64,000 nucleotides of DNA from the NCBI GenBank assembly GCA_028412835.1, contig JAONQW010000001.1:11617-75616 (forward strand), given 5' to 3'. This stretch comes from Candidatus Pelagibacterales bacterium (GTDB lineage Bacteria > Pseudomonadota > Alphaproteobacteria > Pelagibacterales > AG-422-B15). This document shows, in pieces, positions 6,242-61,719 of the stretch. A program made the translations under genes and the position numbers. The notes beneath the pieces are model-generated. The model was not told where the DNA came from. It ran no database searches and worked only from the letters and a program-made list of their open reading frames with translations. Position 1 is the stretch's first letter. Every line of letters starts with the position of its first letter.

Positions 6242-8956
6242 TTGACTGATTCCAAAGACGATAATGCTAGCAATGTACCTGCTTTAGATCCATCAATTAT
6301 TCCTACTTTAATCGACACTGAAATGCAAAATTCATACTTGGATTATGCTATGAGTGTAATTGTTAGCAGAGCCCTGCCAGATGTTAGAGACGGTCTAAAA
6401 CCGGTACACAGAAGAATACTTTATGCAATGTATGAAGCAGGCTATGAGTGGAATAAACAATATAGAAAAAGTGCTAGAGTTGTTGGTGATGTTATCGGTA
6501 AATACCATCCTCATGGAGACCAGTCCGTATACGATGCATTAGTTAGGCTTGCTCAAGATTTTTCGATGAGACTACCTCTTATTGATGGTCAGGGGAACTT
6601 TGGTTCCATGGATGGAGATAGAGCAGCAGCCATGAGATATACAGAAGTTAGGATGCATAAGATTGCTAAATACCTTCTTGATGATATTGATAAAGAGACT
6701 GTTGATTTCAGACCTAACTATGATGAGTCTGAACATGAGCCATCTGTTTTACCTTCTAAGTACCCAAACTTATTAGTAAACGGTGCTGGTGGTATCGCTG
6801 TTGGTATGGCTACAAATATTTTACCACATAACTTAGGAGAAGTCATTGATGCTACTGTTGCTTATATAAAAGATGAAGATATTAGTGATGATGAAATATA
6901 CAGTCATATTAAAGGACCAGATTTTCCAACTGGTGGAACAATAGTAGGCACAAACACAATTAAAGTTTCACAAAAGACTGGAAGAGGCTCAATTATAGTT
7001 CAAGCTAAAAGTACTATTGAAGAATTTAAAGCCGATAGAGATGCAATAATTTTTTCTGAAATTCCATATCAAGTAAATAAATCAGTGTTAATACAAAGAA
7101 TAGCTGAACTTGTTCGAGATAAAAAGATTGAAGGCATTAGTGATCTAAGAGATGAATCTGACAGAGATGGAGTCAGAGTTGTCATTGAACTTAAAAAGGG
7201 AGTAATTGCAAATGTAATTCTTAATAAACTTTATAGATATACGCCTTTACAATCATCTTATGGAGTTAATGCTTTGGCACTAACTGGAGGTCGTCCAAAA
7301 CTTATGGGAATAAAGGAATTCCTCTCTAGTTTTGTCAAATTTAGAATTGAAATTATTACAAATAGAACGAAATTTGATCTTAACAAAGCAAGAGATAGAG
7401 CGCACTTACTAATTGGGCTTGGTATTGCAATTGCTAATGTTGACAAGGTAATTGAAATTATTAAAAAATCTAAAGACCCTGCTGATGCTAAACGGGAGCT
7501 GTTAAAAACTAAGTGGGCTAATTCTGATATTGCAGATTTGTTAGCAATTGTTGATGATCCTAGACAAATCATTAACGAAAAAGAAATTTACCTTACTGAA
7601 GAGCAGGCTAAAGCAATACTTGAGCTAAGACTTCAAAGGCTGACTGCTTTAGGTAAAAATGAAATTGAGTCTGAACTTAAAGAACTTTCAAAAAGTATTA
7701 ACGGTTACCTTGAAATCTTAACTAATAAAGAAATTTTATTAAAGGTTATTGAAGATGAGCTTACTGAAGTTAGAGAGCAGTTTGCAACTCCAAGAAAGAC
7801 AAATATTACTGAAATTGAACTTACAGACTTTGATCAAGAAGACCTTGTTCAAAAAAGTGATATGGTCGTAAGTGTTTCAAATTCTGGCTATATAAAAAGA
7901 GTTCCACTTGAAATGTATCGTGCTCAAAAAAGAGGTGGTAAGGGCAGATCTGGAATGAAAACTAGTGAAGAAGATTTTGTTACCCAGGTATTTACAGCTA
8001 GCACTCATGACAACATGCTATTTTTCACTGCGACTGGTATTGTTTATAAACTCAAAACCTGGAAAATTCCAGAATCATCAATTACAGCTAAAGGTAAAGC
8101 GATAGTTAATCTCTTAGAAATGAAAGAGAACAGTCAACTTTCCAGTATATTGGTGCTTCCAGAAAGTAAGTCATCGTCGGATAAAGAACTGTTTTTAATT
8201 TTTACAACATCTGATGGGACTATTAGAAAGAACAGCCTTGATGACTTTAAAAAAATTCAAAGCAGTGGAAAAATTGCAATGAAACTATCTACTAATAATT
8301 CTATTGTGGGAGTTAAGGTATGTTCAGATGATGATGACTATCTCTTAACTACATCAGAGGGTAAATGCATCAGAACACCTGTTTCAAAATTAAGAACTAC
8401 TAAAAGTAGAACATCTGAGGGAGTAAGGGGTATAAAGCTTTCTTCTAATGATAAAGTTATTTCTGTGTCTATTTTATCTCACACTGAATCAACTAGCGCT
8501 GAAATTAAAGCATATTTAAAAATGCAAAGAGATAAAAAGAATGAACATCATGAAGAGGATGATGAAGAAATAGAGAATGATGATGGAAGTATAGAAACTG
8601 TCAACTTAACAGAAGATATGTTTTCTGAAATGCAAGCACGAGAGCAATTTATATTAACTCTTACAGAAAATGGGTATGGTAAACGAACATCCTCTTATCA
8701 ATTTAGAATAACAAATCGCGGTGGATCAGGAATTAAATGTATTACTACATCTAAAAGAAACGGAAATGTTTTAGCCTCATTTCAAATCGAAAATGCCGAT
8801 GATATAATGCTAATTACAAAATCAGGACAACTAATCAGATGTCCTGTTAAAGATGTTAGGGTTGCTGGTAGAAATACCCAAGGAGTTAGTATTTTTAAAA
8901 CGTCTGATGAAGAAAAAGTTGTTTCCGCATCAAGGGTTGAAATAGATGCTGAATAA
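6242..8956 (+). CDS. gyrA: DNA gyrase subunit A
   Basis: 904 aa containing YAMSVIVSRALPDVRDGLKPVHRR, the AAMRYTE active-site Tyr region and C-terminal beta-pinwheel repeats. A TTG start is inferred because the first in-frame ATG would remove conserved residues. Confidence 0.95.
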   Translation: MTDSKDDNASNVPALDPSIIPTLIDTEMQNSYLDYAMSVIVSRALPDVRDGLKPVHRRILYAMYEAGYEWNKQYRKSARVVGDVIGKYHPHGDQSVYDALVRLAQDFSMRLPLIDGQGNFGSMDGDRAAAMRYTEVRMHKIAKYLLDDIDKETVDFRPNYDESEHEPSVLPSKYPNLLVNGAGGIAVGMATNILPHNLGEVIDATVAYIKDEDISDDEIYSHIKGPDFPTGGTIVGTNTIKVSQKTGRGSIIVQAKSTIEEFKADRDAIIFSEIPYQVNKSVLIQRIAELVRDKKIEGISDLRDESDRDGVRVVIELKKGVIANVILNKLYRYTPLQSSYGVNALALTGGRPKLMGIKEFLSSFVKFRIEIITNRTKFDLNKARDRAHLLIGLGIAIANVDKVIEIIKKSKDPADAKRELLKTKWANSDIADLLAIVDDPRQIINEKEIYLTEEQAKAILELRLQRLTALGKNEIESELKELSKSINGYLEILTNKEILLKVIEDELTEVREQFATPRKTNITEIELTDFDQEDLVQKSDMVVSVSNSGYIKRVPLEMYRAQKRGGKGRSGMKTSEEDFVTQVFTASTHDNMLFFTATGIVYKLKTWKIPESSITAKGKAIVNLLEMKENSQLSSILVLPESKSSSDKELFLIFTTSDGTIRKNSLDDFKKIQSSGKIAMKLSTNNSIVGVKVCSDDDDYLLTTSEGKCIRTPVSKLRTTKSRTSEGVRGIKLSSNDKVISVSILSHTESTSAEIKAYLKMQRDKKNEHHEEDDEEIENDDGSIETVNLTEDMFSEMQAREQFILTLTENGYGKRTSSYQFRITNRGGSGIKCITTSKRNGNVLASFQIENADDIMLITKSGQLIRCPVKDVRVAGRNTQGVSIFKTSDEEKVVSASRVEIDAE

Positions 8957-8996
8957 TTTACTAGAGCAATTTGAGTATTAGTTATATAAGATAACC

Positions 8997-9473
8997 ATGA
9001 AGAGAATTGCTATATACCCTGGTACATTTGACCCAATTCATAGGGGTCATAGTGACATTATCAATAGAGCAGCAAATTTGTGGGATGAGCTATATATTGC
9101 TGTTGCAGACAGTCCTCATAAAAACACTCTTTTTTCACTTGATGAAAGAAAAGCAATGATTGATCATGAATTTAATTCTATCAAAAATATTAAGGTTATT
9201 TCTTTCAATAATTTACTTATAGACCTTGCTAGTTCCTTGGATGCGAGAATTTTAGTAAGAGGTCTTAGAGTTGTTTCAGACTTTGAATATGAATTTCAAA
9301 TGTTAGGTATGAATAGAACAATGAATCCTGATATTGAAACAGTTTTTTTAATGGCTGAACCACAAAATCAACCAATTTCATCAAATTTTGTTAAAGATAT
9401 CGCAAGATTGAATGGTGATATTTCAAAATTTACTAGCGCTAATGTTGCTAATAAATTAAAAGAAAGATTCTAA
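8997..9473 (+). CDS. coaD: phosphopantetheine adenylyltransferase
   Basis: 158 aa with the YPGTFDPIHRGH nucleotidyltransferase motif and a typical CoaD length. Confidence 0.93.
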   Translation: MKRIAIYPGTFDPIHRGHSDIINRAANLWDELYIAVADSPHKNTLFSLDERKAMIDHEFNSIKNIKVISFNNLLIDLASSLDARILVRGLRVVSDFEYEFQMLGMNRTMNPDIETVFLMAEPQNQPISSNFVKDIARLNGDISKFTSANVANKLKERF

Positions 9474-10030
9474 TGATATCTATTTTAAAAGTTTTAACTA
9501 TTTTTACATTTTTAACTACAGCAGCTTTAGGGCAGGAAGAGCATAGTATGGTAAACGATCCAGAGAACAGTATCAAAATTGAATTAACAAGTGGCGATGT
9601 TTACATCGAGCTTTTACCAGATGTTGCTCCAGGGCATGTCGATAGAATTAAAGAATTAGCGCGAGAAGGTTTCTATGATGGCGTACCATTTCACAGAGTA
9701 ATTGATGGTTTCATGGCGCAGACAGGCGATGGTCAGTTTGGCAATGGCACTGGTGGCTCTAGTAAACCTGATTTAAAAGCTGAGTTTAATAATACTTCAC
9801 ACCTAAGAGGAACTGTATCAATGGCTAGAACAGCAGTACCAGACTCTGCAAATAGTCAGTTTTTTATCTGCTTTGGTCCAACACCCCATCTTGATGGCCA
9901 ATATACTGTCTTTGGCCAGGTTGTTAAGGGTATGGAATTTATTGATGGCCTAAAGAAAGGCTCTGGTCAAGGTGGTGAAGTGACTGACCCTGATAAAATG
10001 ATTTCTGTTAAGGTCGTGGCTGATATTTAA
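9473..10030 (+). CDS. peptidyl-prolyl cis-trans isomerase, cyclophilin type, probably periplasmic
   Basis: 185 aa with a cyclophilin core (FHRVIDGFMAQTGD, SQFFICF) and a hydrophobic signal-like N-terminus. Its start overlaps the coaD stop (TAATG). Confidence 0.9.
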   Translation: MISILKVLTIFTFLTTAALGQEEHSMVNDPENSIKIELTSGDVYIELLPDVAPGHVDRIKELAREGFYDGVPFHRVIDGFMAQTGDGQFGNGTGGSSKPDLKAEFNNTSHLRGTVSMARTAVPDSANSQFFICFGPTPHLDGQYTVFGQVVKGMEFIDGLKKGSGQGGEVTDPDKMISVKVVADI

Positions 10031-10037
10031 GGAATAA

Positions 10038-12168
<2,131 letters not shown>

Positions 12169-12963
12169 TTATTTTCCTTGAAAATTAGGTTTTTTCTTTT
12201 GTAAAAAAGCCACAATACCATTATAGCAGTCTTCTGTTTTTCCAGCCACTGACTGTGCAGCACTTTCAGCTGATAGCTGTGTCTCAAAATCATTAGATAA
12301 ACTATCCCAATATAATTTTCGTGTTAGACTATAGGCAACAGTAGGACCGTTTGCTATCTCCGTTGCAATATCCATTACTTCGATCATGAAATTTGGATCA
12401 CTAAAGACATCATTGATAAGTCCCCATGAAAGTGCTTTTTCAGATGATATTTTTTCTCCAAGCAGTGATAACTCCATTGCCCTTGCCATACCAATTTTTC
12501 TTGGCAAAATGTAAGTTGAACTTGCATCGGGAACTAAGCCAATAAATTTAAATGCTTGATAAAAATAAGCTGATTTTGAGGCATATACAAGATCACCAAT
12601 TATTGCTAGTGAACAACCTGCACCTGCAGCTGGACCGTTAACTGCAGTTATAAATGGTATATTTAAATTTTTTAAGTCAATTAGCATTGGGTGATAGTGA
12701 CTATTAAGAGCAGCACCCATATCTAATTTAGAAATATCTGCTGATCCAGGATTATCTACTAAATTAGCACCAGAACAAAAACCTTTTCCTTCTCCAGTTA
12801 TAACCAAACAACGAGCATTGGTCTTACCTTCATTTATATCTTTTATTTTACTATGTATTTGTGTGATCATCGCCATAGAAAGAGCATTAAGCTTTCCCGG
12901 ATCATTCAATGTTAAAATAGCTACATTATTTTTATTAATTTCGAAACTAATTAAATCACTCAC
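12169..12963 (-). CDS. enoyl-CoA hydratase/isomerase family protein
   Basis: 264 aa with a crotonase fold (GKGFCSGANL, NGPAAGAGCSLA). Confidence 0.85.
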   Translation of the reverse strand: MSDLISFEINKNNVAILTLNDPGKLNALSMAMITQIHSKIKDINEGKTNARCLVITGEGKGFCSGANLVDNPGSADISKLDMGAALNSHYHPMLIDLKNLNIPFITAVNGPAAGAGCSLAIIGDLVYASKSAYFYQAFKFIGLVPDASSTYILPRKIGMARAMELSLLGEKISSEKALSWGLINDVFSDPNFMIEVMDIATEIANGPTVAYSLTRKLYWDSLSNDFETQLSAESAAQSVAGKTEDCYNGIVAFLQKKKPNFQGK

Positions 12964-20167: not shown

Positions 20168-20230
20168 TGTTATTACTTTATATTATCGTAATATAAATAT
20201 AACCCCCTTTTTTTTGTTAAAAGGAAGTGA

Positions 20231-21640
20231 TTATACACTAAAATAGTTTTTGAACTCGATTGGATGAGGTGAATGCTCAAGATCGTAAACATCTTGCATC
20301 TTTAATTCAATGTAACCATCAATTTGATCGTCAGTAAATACGCCACCTGCAGTTAGAAAAGCTCTATCTGCATCCAATGATTCTAATGCTTCTCTTAATG
20401 AGCCACAAACCGTTGGAAGTTTTGATACCTCGGCTTCAGGTAATTCATATAGATCTTGATCGGAAGCATCACCGGGATGAATTTTATTCTTAATTCCATC
20501 CATGCCAGCCATAACCATAGCAGCGAAAGCTAAGTAAGGATTTGCTGTTGGGTCCGGAAATCTAACTTCAACTCTTTTACCTTTTGGGCTATCTGAATGT
20601 GGAATTCTACAAGCGGCAGATCTATTTCGTGCTGAATAAACAAGAATAACGGGAGCTTCAAAACCTGGTATTAATCTCTTGTAACTATTTGTACTTGCAT
20701 TAGTAAATGCGTTGAGTGCTTTTCCATGTTTAATAATTCCACCAATATAATGCAATGCAGTTTCAGATAAGCCTGCGTAAGACTCACCTGCAAATAATGG
20801 TTTACCATCTTTCCATATAGATTGATGTACATGCATACCTGAACCATTATCTCCTTTAATAGGCTTTGGCATAAATGTTGCAGTTTTTCCAAATGAGTTT
20901 GCCACCATATGAACACCATATTTATACAGTTGTATTGCATCTCCTTGTTTTAGAAGAGTATCAAATATTAAGCCTAGTTCATGTTGACTTGGGGCTACTT
21001 CGTGGTGATGTTTTTCCATTTTAAGTCCTAAATTTTTAAGTTCTTCCAAAAATTCAGTCCGTATATCTTGTGCGCTATCAACAGGTGGGACGGGAAAATA
21101 ACCTCCTTTGACACCTGGTCTATGTCCAAGGTTACCACTTTCATAATTTCTACTACTATTGTAGGGACCTTCAGTGCTATCAATTTCAAAACTTGACTTA
21201 TTCATTTCAACTTGAAATTTAACATCATCAAAAACAAAAAACTCAGCTTCAGGACCTACATAAATTGTATCCCCAACACCACTAGATTTTACAAATGCTT
21301 CCGCTTTTTTTGCAGTTCCTCGTGGATCTCTCTCGTAAGGCTCTTTAGTAACTGCATCAAGAATGTCACAAAACAACATCATAGTTGGCTGAGCAGTAAA
21401 TGGATCCATTACTAATGTAGACAGGTCCGGTTTCAAGACCATGTCTGACTCGTTGATGGGTTTCCACCCTGCAATAGAAGAGCCGTCAAAAAATGTTCCT
21501 TCGTTTAGAAAATCCTCATCAACAATAGTTCCGTCCATTGTTAGATGTTGCCACTTCCCCTTCACATCAGTGAATCTGAGATCCAAATACTTGGCACCAG
21601 AGTCTTTAATCACCTTTAGAGCTTCGCTTGCAGTTGTCAT
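20231..21640 (-). CDS. glnA: glutamine synthetase type I
   Basis: 469 aa with GSGMHVHQS, NSYKRL and an adenylylation-loop-like DLYELP. Confidence 0.96.
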   Translation of the reverse strand: MTTASEALKVIKDSGAKYLDLRFTDVKGKWQHLTMDGTIVDEDFLNEGTFFDGSSIAGWKPINESDMVLKPDLSTLVMDPFTAQPTMMLFCDILDAVTKEPYERDPRGTAKKAEAFVKSSGVGDTIYVGPEAEFFVFDDVKFQVEMNKSSFEIDSTEGPYNSSRNYESGNLGHRPGVKGGYFPVPPVDSAQDIRTEFLEELKNLGLKMEKHHHEVAPSQHELGLIFDTLLKQGDAIQLYKYGVHMVANSFGKTATFMPKPIKGDNGSGMHVHQSIWKDGKPLFAGESYAGLSETALHYIGGIIKHGKALNAFTNASTNSYKRLIPGFEAPVILVYSARNRSAACRIPHSDSPKGKRVEVRFPDPTANPYLAFAAMVMAGMDGIKNKIHPGDASDQDLYELPEAEVSKLPTVCGSLREALESLDADRAFLTAGGVFTDDQIDGYIELKMQDVYDLEHSPHPIEFKNYFSV

Positions 21641-21715: not shown

Positions 21716-22693
21716 TTAGATTAAAGTACCAACAATATGTGACAGTATCTTATATGGATCTGCATTTGATGCAGGCCTTCTATCCTCTAAATATCCATTC
21801 CAATTGTGTTCAACTGTGTATACAGGAATACGTATACTTGCACCTCTGTCACTAACACCATAAGAAAACTGATCAATACTTTGAGTTTCATGAAGCCCTG
21901 TAAGTCTCATATCATTGTCGGAACCATATGAAGCAATACCATCAGCATGCACTTTGCCTAATTTTTCACACATCGATGAAAATAGCTCTTCAGATCCAGC
22001 ACTTCTCATTGCTTCATTGGAAAAGTTTGTGTGCATACCTGACCCATTCCAATCTCCAGTTTTAGGTTTTGGATGAATGTTAACGCCGACACCATGTTCT
22101 TCGGCAATTTTAAATAATAAATATCTACTTATCCATAAATCGTCTGCAGCTTTAATACCTTTTCCAAAACACTGATATTCCCATTGACCAAGTGCAACCT
22201 CTGCATTTGTTCCTGTTAAAGTTATGCCTATATCTATACATGCTTGAAGGTGAGCATCAGAAATTTTTCTTCCAACAACATTGCCTGCACCAACTCCACA
22301 ATAGTATTCTCCTTGTTCTTTTGGAATACCATCTTGCCAACCAAGCGGCTCTCCAGTTCTAGCATCAGTGAAGAAAAATTCTTGTTCGAAACCAAACCAC
22401 CATTCATCAGTAACAATTTCAGCAGCAGCAGCTCTGAAATTTGACGGATGAGTTTTATGATCTGCAGATTGAACTTGTGTCATAACTAAATCATGTCCAT
22501 TTGGGTTAGAGTAGGTTTGTACTGGAAGAAGTAAGCAGTCGGAACTGCCACCCTCAGCCTGTTGAGTTGATGATCCATCAAACGACCAGTCTGGAGGAGA
22601 TGTTTCATCAGTTGCTTTTACTTTACTTCTCATGAAAGGTTCTGGTTTATAACCATCTAACCATATGTATTCGTATGTTTTAGTACTTGCCAT
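21716..22693 (-). CDS. glnII: glutamine synthetase type II (eukaryote-like GSII)
   Basis: 325 aa with EYIWLDG, FDGSSTQQAEG, WWFGFEQEFFF, NGSGMHTNFS, RGASIRIP and LEDRRP. Closely parallels rhizobial GlnII as I remember it. Confidence 0.92.
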   Translation of the reverse strand: MASTKTYEYIWLDGYKPEPFMRSKVKATDETSPPDWSFDGSSTQQAEGGSSDCLLLPVQTYSNPNGHDLVMTQVQSADHKTHPSNFRAAAAEIVTDEWWFGFEQEFFFTDARTGEPLGWQDGIPKEQGEYYCGVGAGNVVGRKISDAHLQACIDIGITLTGTNAEVALGQWEYQCFGKGIKAADDLWISRYLLFKIAEEHGVGVNIHPKPKTGDWNGSGMHTNFSNEAMRSAGSEELFSSMCEKLGKVHADGIASYGSDNDMRLTGLHETQSIDQFSYGVSDRGASIRIPVYTVEHNWNGYLEDRRPASNADPYKILSHIVGTLI

Positions 22694-22717: not shown

Positions 22718-23056
22718 TTATAATGCTTCTGATCCAGTTTCTCCAGTTCTTATTCTGATAACTGTTTCAATATTAGTAACAAAAATTTTACCGTCACCGA
22801 TTCTATTTGTGTTAGCAGATTTTTTTATTGCTTCAATTGCTGGCCACAACATATCGTCATCGACCACCAATTCAAGTTTCATTTTAGGAATAAAATCAAT
22901 CAAGTGTTCAGAGCCTCTGAATATTTCTTCTTTACCTTTTTGTCTTCCATATCCAACGGCTTCAACTACTGTCATACCTCTTACTCCGACTTCTTCTAAA
23001 GCCTCTTTGACATCATCAATCTTAAAAGGCTTTATAATGGCTTCAATTTTTTTCAT
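22718..23056 (-). CDS. glnB: nitrogen regulatory protein P-II (variant T-loop, His51)
   Basis: 112 aa and gapless against E. coli GlnB (MKKI.AIIKPFK.DDV, GDGKIF, IRIRTGE). T-loop reads GYGRQKGKEEIFRGSEHL. Confidence 0.95.
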   Translation of the reverse strand: MKKIEAIIKPFKIDDVKEALEEVGVRGMTVVEAVGYGRQKGKEEIFRGSEHLIDFIPKMKLELVVDDDMLWPAIEAIKKSANTNRIGDGKIFVTNIETVIRIRTGETGSEAL

Positions 23057-23256
23057 AATTTAAATAAGCTACTTAATTCGAACGTTAATTTAATCTGAAA
23101 AAAAGTATTCCCCAACACCAAATTTATATAAGTATCTGCTAGAAACTAACGTGATTACATGCCAATATGACATCTATTAATTAATTTATTATCAATTAAT
23201 AAATTATCTATTTTAATCAAGTAGATAGAAATATAACTTAATAATTAATATTAGTA

Positions 23257-46497: not shown

Positions 46498-47256
46498 ATG
46501 GAACTTATATTTTCACTAGAAACATTCATTTTTTTATTTTTTGTTGCAATTACAGCTGGCATTGTCGACACATTAGCTGGCGTTGGTGGATTAATAGTAT
46601 TACCAGCACTTGTATTAATCGGATTACCTCCTTTAACTGCCTTAGGAACTAACAAAGCCCAATCATTTGCTGGGACTGGAACAGCATCTTACATGATGCT
46701 GGTGTATAAGAAGATATCAGTAAAACAAATGAAACCATTAATGCTTACAGCTTTTGTAGGTTCATTAATTGGTACAGTACTTATTCAATTTATTGACAAT
46801 AAGTCACTTTCTATAGTTATACCCGTAGTATTGATGATTATTATATTATATTTTATTTTTTCACCTCGGATGAATGAGGTGTCAAGCAAAGCAAGAATAT
46901 CTGATAACCTATACAAATATACGCTGGCACCCATAATAGGGCTTTACGATGGAATGTTTGGTCCTGGAACTGGATCTTTCTTTACAGTTAGTGGCGTGGC
47001 ATTAAGAGGTAAAAGTTTAATAGATGCAACTGCAAATGCTAAAGCGCTTAATTTTGCAACTAATGTTGGTTCATTATTTATCTTTTTATATTTAGGTGAG
47101 GTTATATTTCCAATAGCTTTAGTAATGATAGCTGGACAGTTTATTGGTGCTCGTATTGGTTCAAACTTTTTAATTAATATTAATCCAACATTTTTAAAAT
47201 ATTTTGTTATTTTGTTGTGTGTCTTGATGCTTGCTCGATATCTTAATTTAATCTAA
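46498..47256 (+). CDS. TauE/SafE (TSUP) family anion exporter
   Basis: 252 aa, about 8 TM, with GxGGG-type motifs (LAGVGGLIVLP, GPGTGSF). Confidence 0.7.
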   Translation: MELIFSLETFIFLFFVAITAGIVDTLAGVGGLIVLPALVLIGLPPLTALGTNKAQSFAGTGTASYMMLVYKKISVKQMKPLMLTAFVGSLIGTVLIQFIDNKSLSIVIPVVLMIIILYFIFSPRMNEVSSKARISDNLYKYTLAPIIGLYDGMFGPGTGSFFTVSGVALRGKSLIDATANAKALNFATNVGSLFIFLYLGEVIFPIALVMIAGQFIGARIGSNFLININPTFLKYFVILLCVLMLARYLNLI

Positions 47257-47770
47257 ATCCACAAACAAAATTTTCTTGTGCTACAGTTTCAATAGAACCT
47301 GGTCGATTATCTCTTATAACTTCTATTGATTGCTGTGCAGACAAACCTAATTTAGTTAATATTAAAGCTGCTATCATTCCAGTTCTACCAAGACCAGCCA
47401 TACAATGAATATAGATATTCTCCCCATTAAAAATTCTTTGACTGATAGTTTTTATGTGAGAATTTAATTCATCGTATTGATTTAAATTAGGTATACCAAA
47501 ATTGATTATTTCAAAATGAATCCACTTAATATTGTTTTTATTTAATTCTTTAAATAAATTTTTGGCTCCCAGATGGGTAAGCTCATTTTCTTCTACTAAG
47601 CAGATTAAACACTTAATATTTAAATCTTTTATGATTTGAATATCACCCAGTAGATCTTTACCCATCCCAGGACAGCTAGAAAGAAATAAGTCACCAAACA
47701 CTTGAGCATTTGATGACTTGTTATTACGATTTATTAGGTGGTTAGTTCTAATGCAAGAGTAATTAAGCAA
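47243..47770 (-). CDS. dual-specificity protein phosphatase, CDKN3/KAP-like
   Basis: 175 aa with a CX5R P-loop (HCMAGLGRTG) and an upstream LSSCPG. Collinear with human KAP as remembered. Uses a TTG start 7 nt after the upstream gene's stop. Confidence 0.75.
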   Translation of the reverse strand: MLNYSCIRTNHLINRNNKSSNAQVFGDLFLSSCPGMGKDLLGDIQIIKDLNIKCLICLVEENELTHLGAKNLFKELNKNNIKWIHFEIINFGIPNLNQYDELNSHIKTISQRIFNGENIYIHCMAGLGRTGMIAALILTKLGLSAQQSIEVIRDNRPGSIETVAQENFVCGFRLN

Positions 47771-59095: not shown

Positions 59096-59356
59096 ATGGA
59101 TGACATAGAGATACATAGAAAAAAACTTTCATTTCGTGCGGGACATCGTGGAACTAAGGAAATGGATATGCTTTTAGGCAATTTTACTGATAAATATATA
59201 AAATTGTTTGATGAAGTTGAGCTTGGTATGCTGAGCGATTTATTAGATTGTGAAGATGATTTAATTTACAAATGTCTATTAGACAAAGAATCATTGCCTA
59301 CTTTAATGGATAATAGAGTCTTTCACTTACTAAAAGATACAGCTATCAATAAATAA
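59096..59356 (+). CDS. sdhE: succinate dehydrogenase flavinylation factor SdhE (SDHAF2 family)
   Basis: 86 aa with the RGTKEMD (RGxxE) motif and a five-helix pattern. Confidence 0.8.
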   Translation: MDDIEIHRKKLSFRAGHRGTKEMDMLLGNFTDKYIKLFDEVELGMLSDLLDCEDDLIYKCLLDKESLPTLMDNRVFHLLKDTAINK

Positions 59357-61719
59357 TGTCTTCACCTCAAATTAAACATGAAGAGGCATCTTTAGTTATT
59401 AATAAAGATGATAATTTTGAATATCAGCACACTATCGATTATTTGGGTGAGAACGGATATATAAGAGTTAGTAATGTAAGAGAGACGGGGGAGTTTTCAG
59501 TAAAAGGAGATGTTATAGATATATTTCCTAGTGGTTATGATAATCCAGTAAGAGTTGATACGTTTGGTAATGAAATTGAAAAACTACAAATATTTAATCT
59601 TAAAGACCAAAAACCAATTGATGATATTAAGCGACTAATCGTATATCCCTTTAATGAGTTTTTATTTAATCAAAATAATAGAAAGATAAGTGCAGACAGT
59701 TTTTTAACTGATCTAAGTACTTATGATTTAAATGACTTAATTGTTCATGTTGATCATGGAATTGGAAGATTTAAGGGTTTGCAAACTATTCCTGTATTAG
59801 GTTCAAACCATGAATGTGTAGAAATACATTACTCTAATGATGATAAACTTTTTATACCTGTTGAGAATATTGAACTACTAAGTAAATATGGTGGTAAAAA
59901 TGATTATATTGTTCTTGATAGGCTAGGTGCCACCCAATGGCAATATAGAAAAGCCGTAGCTAAAAATAAGATTAAGGAAATGGCAGCCGAGTTAATTAAG
60001 ACTGCAGCATCTAGAACTCTTGAAACAGCACCTAAATTTTTTACTCAAGAACCATATTACTCAAATTTTAATGCTGAGTTTCCATTTGATGAAACGGAAG
60101 ATCAGATAAAAGCGATTGCCGAAATTCACGATGATTTAGTTAAAGGCACCCCTATGGATAGGCTTATTTGTGGTGATGTTGGTTATGGTAAAACTGAAGT
60201 TGCTATTAGGGCTGCATTTACTGTAGCTTTGAGTGGTCATCAAGTAGCAATTCTGGTGCCAACGACACTATTATGTCGACAACATCATGAAAATCTTACT
60301 AAACGATTTTCTAAATCTCCTATTAAAGTTGCGCAGCTATCTAGACTAGTATCACCCAGTGAAGCTAACGAAACTATTGATAAAGTTTCAAAAGGAGAGG
60401 TGGATATTCTTATTGGAACTCATGCTATATTAAGTGATAAAATTAATTTTAAAAAACTAGGGCTTTTAATAATTGATGAAGAACAACATTTTGGTGTTAA
60501 GCAAAAAGAAAAATTAAAAACACTCCGAACAGACGTTCATATTTTGTCATTAACTGCAACACCCATTCCTAGGACATTACAGATGTCATTGGTAGGTTTA
60601 AGAGAACTTTCTATAATTTCAACTGCACCAGTCAATAGACAGTCTATAAAAACAAAAGTAGTCAACTTTGATAGCAAAATAATTAAAGATGCTATTAAAA
60701 ATGAAATTAGTAGAAATGGTCAATTATATTATGTTTGTCCAAGAGTTAAGCAGATTGAAGAAGTTGAAGAGTTTTTAAAAGAAGAAATGCCTGAAGTTTC
60801 ATATAAAGTGGCACACGGTCAAATGCCAGCTAAAGGACTTGAATCAGTAATGGTTGATTTTTACAATCATGAATTTTCAATTTTATTATGTACAACTATC
60901 GTTGAGTCTGGGCTTGATTTAAGAAATACAAATACAATGATTATTCACAACTCAGATAATTTTGGTCTATCCCAATTATACCAACTTAGAGGTCGAATTG
61001 GACGATCAAATACTGAGGCATTTTGTTATTATACCATCAAAGATTTTGATGGACTAACTGATCAAGCTAAACAAAGATTAAAATTACTGCAAAAATTAGA
61101 TAGTTTAGGATCAGGATTTAACCTCGCTAGTCATGATTTGGATATTCGGGGGTCAGGTAATATTCTAGGTGATGATCAATCTGGCCATATTAGAGAAATT
61201 GGTCTTGAACTTTATCACCGTCTCTTAAAAGAAAAGATACAAGAGTTACAAGATGATGGTGAATCACAACAATCTGAATGGTCTCCACAAATAAATCTTG
61301 GAATTGGAGTGCTTATACCAACAAATTATATAGGTAGTTTAAATACTAGATTAAGTTTCTATCGTAAGTTAGCGTATTTAAACGATAAAAAAAAGATTAC
61401 TGATATTAAGGACGAAATGATTGTTACTTTTGGCGATTTACCAAAAGAAGTTGAGAATTTATTTACAGTAACTGAGCTTCGGTCCTTATGTAAAAAAGCC
61501 AACATAGAAAAAGTTGAATTAGGACAAAAGGGGGGTTCAATTAAGTTCAAAGGCAATAAATTTAGTAATCCTGATGGCTTAGTTAGCTTAATTCAATCAA
61601 ACCATAAAAACGTAAAACTACGACCAGATCAAAGTTTAATATATATGTTTGATATTCCTCGTAAGGATCATAATATCGAGAGAATAATTAATTTAGTTAA
61701 AGAAATATCTGAACTTTAA
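59356..61719 (+). CDS. mfd: transcription-repair coupling factor Mfd, N-terminally reduced form
   Basis: 787 aa. It has a UvrB-like GEFSVKGDVIDIFP..RVDTFGNEIE segment and an RNAP-interaction-type HVDHGIGRFKG. Helicase motifs are GDVGYGKTEVA, DEEQHFG and RGRIGRS, and there is a C-terminal TRLSFYRKLA region. The start overlaps the sdhE stop. Confidence 0.9.
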   Translation: MSSPQIKHEEASLVINKDDNFEYQHTIDYLGENGYIRVSNVRETGEFSVKGDVIDIFPSGYDNPVRVDTFGNEIEKLQIFNLKDQKPIDDIKRLIVYPFNEFLFNQNNRKISADSFLTDLSTYDLNDLIVHVDHGIGRFKGLQTIPVLGSNHECVEIHYSNDDKLFIPVENIELLSKYGGKNDYIVLDRLGATQWQYRKAVAKNKIKEMAAELIKTAASRTLETAPKFFTQEPYYSNFNAEFPFDETEDQIKAIAEIHDDLVKGTPMDRLICGDVGYGKTEVAIRAAFTVALSGHQVAILVPTTLLCRQHHENLTKRFSKSPIKVAQLSRLVSPSEANETIDKVSKGEVDILIGTHAILSDKINFKKLGLLIIDEEQHFGVKQKEKLKTLRTDVHILSLTATPIPRTLQMSLVGLRELSIISTAPVNRQSIKTKVVNFDSKIIKDAIKNEISRNGQLYYVCPRVKQIEEVEEFLKEEMPEVSYKVAHGQMPAKGLESVMVDFYNHEFSILLCTTIVESGLDLRNTNTMIIHNSDNFGLSQLYQLRGRIGRSNTEAFCYYTIKDFDGLTDQAKQRLKLLQKLDSLGSGFNLASHDLDIRGSGNILGDDQSGHIREIGLELYHRLLKEKIQELQDDGESQQSEWSPQINLGIGVLIPTNYIGSLNTRLSFYRKLAYLNDKKKITDIKDEMIVTFGDLPKEVENLFTVTELRSLCKKANIEKVELGQKGGSIKFKGNKFSNPDGLVSLIQSNHKNVKLRPDQSLIYMFDIPRKDHNIERIINLVKEISEL

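Follow-up and report, generated by a model that had tools for sequence, protein, structure and literature searches.

The window analysed here, a 64-kb stretch of DNA from a Candidatus Pelagibacterales genome (32.5% GC; no rRNA or tRNA gene was detected within it), carries a gene for a PII signal protein, glnB, followed by two glutamine synthetase genes (Table 1). The locus begins with a divergent NAD(P)H-hydrate dehydratase gene (yjeF) and continues with glnB, glnII, glnA and an acyl-CoA dehydrogenase gene, and the same locus was found on at least 30 related contigs. glnB, glnII and glnA are co-oriented on one strand and separated by spacers of only 24 and 75 nt. Because of the 24-nt spacer between glnB and glnII and the terminator-like hairpin behind glnA, we read glnB as the first gene of a glnB-glnII-glnA operon, which would likely end at this hairpin. 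glnB is thereby co-oriented with, and placed immediately upstream of, a glutamine synthetase gene, the arrangement that defines the GlnB subtype of PII proteins.

Table 1. Features of the glnB-glnII-glnA locus, in window coordinates.
Feature	Position	Strand	Evidence or remark
Terminator-like hairpin right behind the stop codon of glnA	20202..20228	-	Consensus scan only
glnA, type I glutamine synthetase	20231..21640	-	TIGR00653, 648 bits, over the cutoff of 429
glnII, type II glutamine synthetase (24-nt spacer from glnB)	21716..22693	-	NCBIfam GlnII, 351 bits, E 6e-105, under the cutoff of 500
glnB, 112-aa PII with derived T-loop	22718..23056	-	Translation, PF00543, NCBIfam GlnB, PDB alignments, AF2 and Foldseek
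T-loop, residues 37-55, GRQKGKEEIFRGSEHLIDF	22892..22948	-	Codon coordinates; low AF2 pLDDT; no nonsynonymous change versus L001/L011
His51 codon CAC (plus strand GTG), replacing the uridylylated Tyr51	22904..22906	-	Aligned with Y51 of E. coli GlnB
Ser49 codon TCT, R-G-S-E context	22910..22912	-	Kept in all clade members
Phe46 codon TTC, replacing Tyr46	22919..22921	-	Tyr46 retained by 143 of the 145 loops read
Conserved non-coding block upstream of glnB, about 90 nt	23084..23173	-	Five clade members compared
Imperfect inverted repeat ATGTCA-N3-TGGCAT within the upstream block	23159..23173	-	Repeat core invariant in the sister clade too

The glutamine synthetase complement is in flux among close relatives, while glnB is always retained. 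Both glnII and glnA are present in the window and at locus L090, glnA alone at L001-L009 and L011, and glnII alone at L010 (5837-6817); glnII was additionally found at all loci of a sister clade described below. The type II enzyme gene between glnB and glnA is an observation in its own right for a SAR11 genome; cultured Ca. P. ubique has been described with one class I and two class III glutamine synthetases. The GlnA of the window retains the tyrosine of the adenylylation loop (LYELP, Tyr398), which is compatible with control by GlnE but no proof of such a route.

Upstream of glnB, a non-coding block shows a mean pairwise identity of 85% among five clade members, versus 51% at the third codon positions of glnB, and equivalent blocks are located at L001, L009, L010, L090, L012, L022 and L029. 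Most likely, this block represents a transcription-factor operator or a leader element for the glnB-glnII-glnA operon. Several more specific candidates were tried and rejected. For a riboswitch or structured leader, no Rfam family matched at gathering thresholds and a permissive scan remained at chance level (E 0.75), and the RNA fold of the block (RNAalifold, -6.8 kcal/mol) contained no compensatory pairs. Reading the TGGCAT motif as part of a sigma-54 promoter failed, as the -12 GC is missing at the required spacing. Finally, a 27-codon open reading frame (MSYWH...) starting from 23173 is broken by a stop codon in L010, and most of its substitutions are nonsynonymous, making a leader peptide unlikely. 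The rest of the window contains the ATGTCA-N3-TGGCAT core no more often than expected (three matches versus 3.8).

The 112-residue translation of glnB (MKKIEAIIKPFKIDDVKEALEEVGVRGMTVVEAVGYGRQKGKEEIFRGSEHLIDFIPKMKLELVVDDDMLWPAIEAIKKSANTNRIGDGKIFVTNIETVIRIRTGETGSEAL) was assessed by profile, alignment and structure comparisons. Pfam PF00543 covered residues 1-106 with 106.1 bits (cutoff 25). The NCBIfam models for GlnB (NF008111) and GlnK (NF007946) reached 150 and 133.5 bits, respectively, and thus remained under their equivalog cutoffs of 202 and 181; as both models are tuned to enterobacterial sequences, these sub-cutoff scores are weak evidence. A phmmer search against all PDB chains aligned the protein without gaps to E. 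coli GlnB (1PIL/2PII), H. seropedicae GlnB (1HWU) and others, and the solved relatives further include A. brasilense GlnZ (3MHY). An AF2 model computed from a 52-sequence alignment (pLDDT 82) displayed the E-H-E-E-H-E order of secondary structure elements that is typical of PII, with residues 44-52 below a pLDDT of 50, in line with a flexible loop. When this model was submitted to Foldseek, the top 50 matches were all PII chains with a probability of 1.00. By sequence and structure criteria, the window protein is a bona fide PII family member, and by gene context it is a GlnB.

Among known systems, it most closely resembles the GlnB proteins of alphaproteobacterial glnB-glnA operons (Rhodospirillum rubrum, Azospirillum brasilense, Rhizobium), which likewise comprise 112 residues, align without gaps at 58-74% identity, share the fold, effector-binding residues and B-loop, and are encoded upstream of glnA. 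The window differs from these systems in about 10 of 22 T-loop positions, in the absence of the uridylylation tyrosine and in the presence of glnII between glnB and glnA. As part of an overall explanation that we consider probable, the window PII would be the SAR11 ortholog of alphaproteobacterial GlnB.

The residues which we take to contact ATP/ADP and 2-oxoglutarate (G37, R38, Q39, K58, the B-loop T-x3-G-D-G-K-I-F, R101 and R103; PROSITE PS00638) are all present in the window PII. Within the 52-sequence alignment, G37, R38, Q39, K58, G87, D88, G89, K90 and R103 fall into invariant columns, and the R101 column is near-invariant. This conservation suggests that the window PII binds ATP, ADP and 2-oxoglutarate.

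The T-loop, in turn, is strongly derived. It reads GYGRQKGKEEIFRGSEHLIDFIPK, and the peptide carrying the T-loop site is EEIFRGSEHLIDFIPK. Approximately 10 of 22 positions are changed (F36Y, H42K, T43E, L45I, Y46F, A49S, Y51H, V52L, V53I/N and L56I). The signature of the uridylylation site, presumably Y-[KR]-G-[AS]-[AE]-Y (PROSITE PS00496), is replaced by F-R-G-S-E-H; both signature tyrosines are substituted and the site that defines the GlnD-modified subgroup is lacking. In the PDB alignments to 1PIL/2PII, 1HWU and others, H51, the only histidine of the protein, lies opposite Y51. Only one tyrosine exists in the entire protein, Y36 in the base of the loop, where one relative has Phe; no alignment can therefore place a tyrosine at the loop apex.

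These results bear on a preliminary description of this DNA, which had been made from the sequence alone. Its gapless alignment of the 112-residue protein to E. coli GlnB was reproduced by phmmer against 1PIL/2PII, and the effector-binding residues that it held to be intact are all present, in columns that are invariant or, for R101, near-invariant. The replacement of Tyr51 by His was matched exactly on codon check, and the codons for the proposed Tyr46-to-Phe change and for Ser49 in an RGSE context were found as well (Table 1). A structure-aware alignment placing a tyrosine at the T-loop apex, which the description had named as evidence against its reading, is impossible with Y36 as the only tyrosine.

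The same description had named a singleton H51, not shared by close relatives, as another outcome that would speak against its reading. Instead, the loop proved clade-wide. In a first homolog search covering 5.8 billion proteins, the shared loop GKEEIFRGSEHL, including F46, S49 and H51, occurred in 11 of 11 protein clusters at 82-99% identity, all from marine Pelagibacteraceae. More distant matches (at most 74% identity) carried the canonical loop, except for two H51 variants in otherwise canonical loops (2 of 109 matches), both singletons on short contigs. The exact window PII sequence was present on 552 contigs, with the NCBI accessions annotated as Pelagibacteraceae or Pelagibacterales, and this recurrence on hundreds of contigs excludes a sequencing artefact. 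Identical or near-identical PII proteins were moreover encoded on Tara, Arctic and other marine metagenome contigs. Scanning one genome per GTDB species with peptide patterns specific to the window PII identified the loop in three Pelagibacteraceae genomes (L009-L011), namely two Fram Strait MAGs labelled AG-422-B15 and the single-cell genome AG-900-M14.

Outside this clade, the substituted positions are close to invariant. When 1.84 billion cluster representatives (50%-identity clusters) were searched exhaustively with HMMER, the best 150 proteins yielded 145 readable T-loops, among which Tyr51 and Arg47 were each present in 145 of 145, Tyr46 in 143 and Ser49 in 17. A separate observation concerns P0388, an unrelated 112-residue PII representative with F46 and S49 that retains Tyr51; the F46/S49 pair is thus not restricted to SAR11 and can occur together with Tyr51.

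Codon comparison of six clade members gave dN/dS values of 0.01-0.08, with synonymous sites near saturation (pS 0.63-0.84). Over residues 36-57, the window differed from L001/L011 by 12 synonymous and no nonsynonymous changes, and the His51 codon in relatives is either CAC or CAT. The H51 loop is hence real, fixed in a marine Pelagibacteraceae clade and under strong purifying selection.

Several sequences that seemed to place a canonical loop closer to this clade were discarded. P0014 and P0017, the closest matches with a canonical loop, have a different synteny and were assigned to other alphaproteobacteria. P0012, encoded at the same locus on L089 (ENA ERZ1699694 contig_6405), appeared to be a close SAR11 relative with a canonical loop. 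In a sliding-window comparison of positions 8500-12500, however, patches 100% identical to L011 alternated with stretches of 55-70% identity, and many genes were frameshifted. L089 probably stems from long-read metagenome assembly followed by polishing with reads of another strain, and owing to its mosaic nature we do not trust the P0012 loop as a real haplotype. At most, it hints at some Pelagibacterales lineage with a canonical loop at this locus.

A second SAR11 clade carries a T-loop that is remodelled in another way. This sister clade (L012-L033, for example L012 10001-10336) comprises about 21 Pelagibacteraceae GTDB species represented by single-cell genomes. Its PII is encoded at the same syntenic locus (yjeF, divergent glnB-glnII-glnA, acyl-CoA dehydrogenase gene) and shares the derived residues I13, R26 and S80 with the window protein. 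Whereas the window PII has H51, 112 residues and Arg47, the sister-clade PII retains Tyr51, is one residue shorter (111 aa) and lacks the otherwise invariant Arg47: its loop, GLGRQRGFTEVNTGVEY-GDFLPK, contains the motif NTGVEY-GDF with the changes R47T, Y46N and A49V. This loop is nearly invariant in about 118 protein clusters at 82-99% identity, with a pN/pS of roughly 0.03, and is thus likewise subject to strong purifying selection.

Comparing the two clades revealed where the divergence is concentrated. GlnII, GlnA and acyl-CoA dehydrogenase share 85-90% identity across the clade boundary, but PII only 69-70%. Within PII, residues 1-35 and 81-112 retain 83-91% identity. Residues 36-57, in contrast, form the most conserved segment in 89 canonical relatives (mean major-residue frequency 0.98) and the most diverged segment in both SAR11 clades, with 12 of 22 residues identical to the consensus in the window clade, 13 of 22 in the sister clade and 10 of 22 between the clades. 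With a diverged loop flanked by conserved ends, the usual pattern of constraint on PII is inverted in SAR11. Each lineage underwent a burst of different loop changes, followed by stasis. The sister-clade loop is heavily altered even though it retains Tyr51; losing this residue is therefore only one result of the remodelling and need not have driven it.

We then asked which other components of nitrogen regulation accompany this protein. In the 64-kb window and a further 10 kb beyond its left edge, no glnD, glnE, amtB, ntrBC, ntrYX or second PII gene was found. Similarly, a scan of all fetched loci for the GlnD nucleotidyltransferase motif, which covered the glnB region only, gave no match in SAR11 loci; matches were confined to actinobacterial and deltaproteobacterial loci. 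In published surveys, SAR11 subclade Ia is described as devoid of glnB, glnD, glnK and ntrBC (PMC3870248), in agreement with the preliminary description, according to which the nitrogen response of cultured Ca. P. ubique is PII-independent. Among 471 SAR11 genomes, glnD was not found, and glnB was reported in subclades IIIa and LD12 and stated to be missing from other SAR11 (PMC10030771, Lanclos et al. 2023). The supplement of that study does not contain the genomes considered here, and published surveys may not include the window lineage.

A glnB-bearing relative of Ca. P. ubique with a non-uridylylatable T-loop had been anticipated to be notable. The presence of glnB without glnD had already been reported in IIIa/LD12 (PMC10030771), and glnB as such is thus less novel than assumed. 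The preliminary description did not, on the other hand, capture the broader picture of some 10 altered positions among 22 in the T-loop and of an independently remodelled loop in the sister clade. The window lineage resembles IIIa and LD12 in retaining a PII gene in a group without a detected glnD; the IIIa/LD12 paper gives no loop sequence (PMC10030771). The putative glnK of the IIIa strain IMCC9063 is reported as not being near amtB (PMC3870248), and that description differs from the window, where glnB adjoins glutamine synthetase genes. The window lineage is abundant in open-ocean and polar metagenomes, and the records of its relatives are labelled AG-422-B15. Together with the adjacency to glnA, this distribution suggests that the lineage may belong to a group other than IIIa.

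Which function would fit such a protein? The explanation we consider probable is a functional sensor of ATP, ADP and 2-oxoglutarate that is not uridylylatable by GlnD and has a retargeted T-loop. The PII fold, the intact effector residues and the lack of a loop tyrosine all point this way, and support the earlier reading of a sensor that cannot be modified in the classical proteobacterial manner. GlnD would be unable to uridylylate or adenylylate this PII, which may instead act as an unmodified sensor of 2-oxoglutarate and energy charge, with effector binding setting the conformation of the T-loop and this conformation, in turn, controlling binding to target proteins. The loop may have been reshaped once GlnD and further canonical T-loop partners, among them NtrB, had disappeared from the lineage, and could by now be adapted to fewer or other targets. 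Of these, the most plausible would be an Amt ammonium channel and/or control of the glutamine synthetases encoded downstream, either directly or through GlnE. In the solved GlnK-AmtB complex, Arg47 enters the pore exit of AmtB; because this plug residue is retained in the window clade, we favour an Amt channel as one target there, while its loss in the sister clade argues that targets differ between the two clades. No amtB gene is adjacent to glnB in the window.

PII proteins sense ATP, ADP and 2-oxoglutarate independently of modification, which only Proteobacteria, Actinobacteria and some cyanobacteria are described to perform (PMC4285133). The unmodified PII proteins of Bacillus (GlnK), archaea (GlnK), plants and Prochlorococcus, as well as the E. 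coli GlnK variant Y51A, signal through an effector-driven T-loop, and for GlnK Y51A association with and dissociation from AmtB still follow nitrogen status (PMC4285133). In R. rubrum, GlnE is controlled by unmodified PII and 2-oxoglutarate (bioRxiv 10.64898/2026.09.02.748916). Unlike the window GlnB ortholog, in which the residue is replaced and the loop rewritten, the unmodified prokaryotic examples keep Tyr51 (PMC4285133, and every solved loop that was aligned).

A more far-reaching version of this explanation, to which we assign a rather low likelihood, holds that two sister SAR11 lineages, having lost GlnD and NtrB, independently rewrote the T-loop to dock a new or narrowed partner. Possible docking options are the co-transcribed type II and/or type I glutamine synthetase, or an Amt paralog whose cytoplasmic face has co-evolved; Ser49 or His51 could conceivably also undergo a new kind of modification. 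If true, this would amount to an unrecognised PII-target pair in the most abundant heterotroph group of the ocean, rather than a 'PII-independent' response.

Other explanations deserve consideration. The window PII resembles that of the cyanobacterium Synechococcus elongatus (2XUL, 1QY7) in its conserved effector sites and in Ser49 within R-G-S-E; the cyanobacterial protein presumably retains both Tyr46 and Tyr51, and it belongs to a PphA, NAGK and PipX network that is not known in SAR11. Covalent control could persist through phosphorylation of Ser49, a cyanobacterial-type switch that would have arisen independently in a proteobacterium. The A49S change is derived and fixed in every clade member, in the R-G-S-E context, and in Synechococcus and Synechocystis PII phosphorylation takes place at Ser49 (PMC4285133). 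Yet the same residue is present and remains unphosphorylated in Prochlorococcus, Anabaena and plants (PMC4285133), and with 17 of the 145 representative loops carrying it, Ser49 is simply a common variant. The sister clade, moreover, has Val49, and neither a PphA-type PP2C phosphatase nor a Ser/Thr kinase was seen in the window, its sole phosphatase-like open reading frame being of the dual-specificity type and 24 kb away from glnB. We thus regard such a switch as quite unlikely. That open reading frame (47243-47770, minus strand; dual-specificity/PTP-type phosphatase domains PF22784 and PF00782) seems in itself unexpected in a streamlined genome.

Many proteobacteria have two or three PII paralogs with divergent roles, so the window copy could also be a specialised paralog with a narrow task, while a canonical GlnK/GlnB system under GlnD control operates from another place in the genome. 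The genome scan would indeed have overlooked a further PII of canonical type, as its patterns were specific to the window PII. However, the window glnB occupies the ancestral alphaproteobacterial glnB-glnA position and not a secondary locus, the genomes are streamlined (32.5% GC in the window), and the surveyed SAR11 genomes lack glnD, with subclade Ia lacking any PII gene (PMC10030771, PMC3870248), which leaves a paralog an improbable explanation. Loss of PII in subclade Ia (PMC3870248), along with the stronger divergence of PII relative to its neighbour genes between the two SAR11 clades, would also fit a decaying relic, that is, a partnerless protein drifting towards loss with meaningless loop changes. 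Decay is contradicted by dN/dS values of 0.01-0.08 at near-saturated synonymous sites, a loop that is invariant within each clade, an intact glnB frame on hundreds of contigs and a conserved upstream region; the selection data effectively refute it, and we give it hardly any credence. The retargeted, non-uridylylatable sensor hence remains the reading we prefer.

Mechanistically, this PII is not a new kind, since PII proteins that go unmodified are familiar and engineered Tyr51 variants remain functional. Three features nonetheless appear to be new: a natural proteobacterial GlnB ortholog with Tyr51 replaced, an entire loop that sister SAR11 lineages have each remodelled in their own way, and a PII-headed glutamine synthetase operon in abundant SAR11 populations. 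None of the three was encountered in the open-access literature searched. SAR11 serves as the standard example of a 'PII-independent' nitrogen response, yet abundant oceanic and polar lineages keep a PII protein at the head of a glutamine synthetase operon. They offer a natural experiment on the constraints that act on the T-loop in the absence of GlnD and NtrB, and the window data point to a PII target in bacteria with a dominant part in the recycling of marine nitrogen. On the practical side, the homology label 'GlnB' in SAR11 metatranscriptomes or metaproteomes would wrongly imply a GlnD/NtrBC cascade.

Apart from the glnB locus, we noted that the open reading frame for the transcription-repair coupling factor Mfd (59356-61719, plus strand) aligns from about position 294 of the 907-position model TIGR00580; judged from its annotated start, it appears to be without most of the N-terminal region and encodes only 787 residues.
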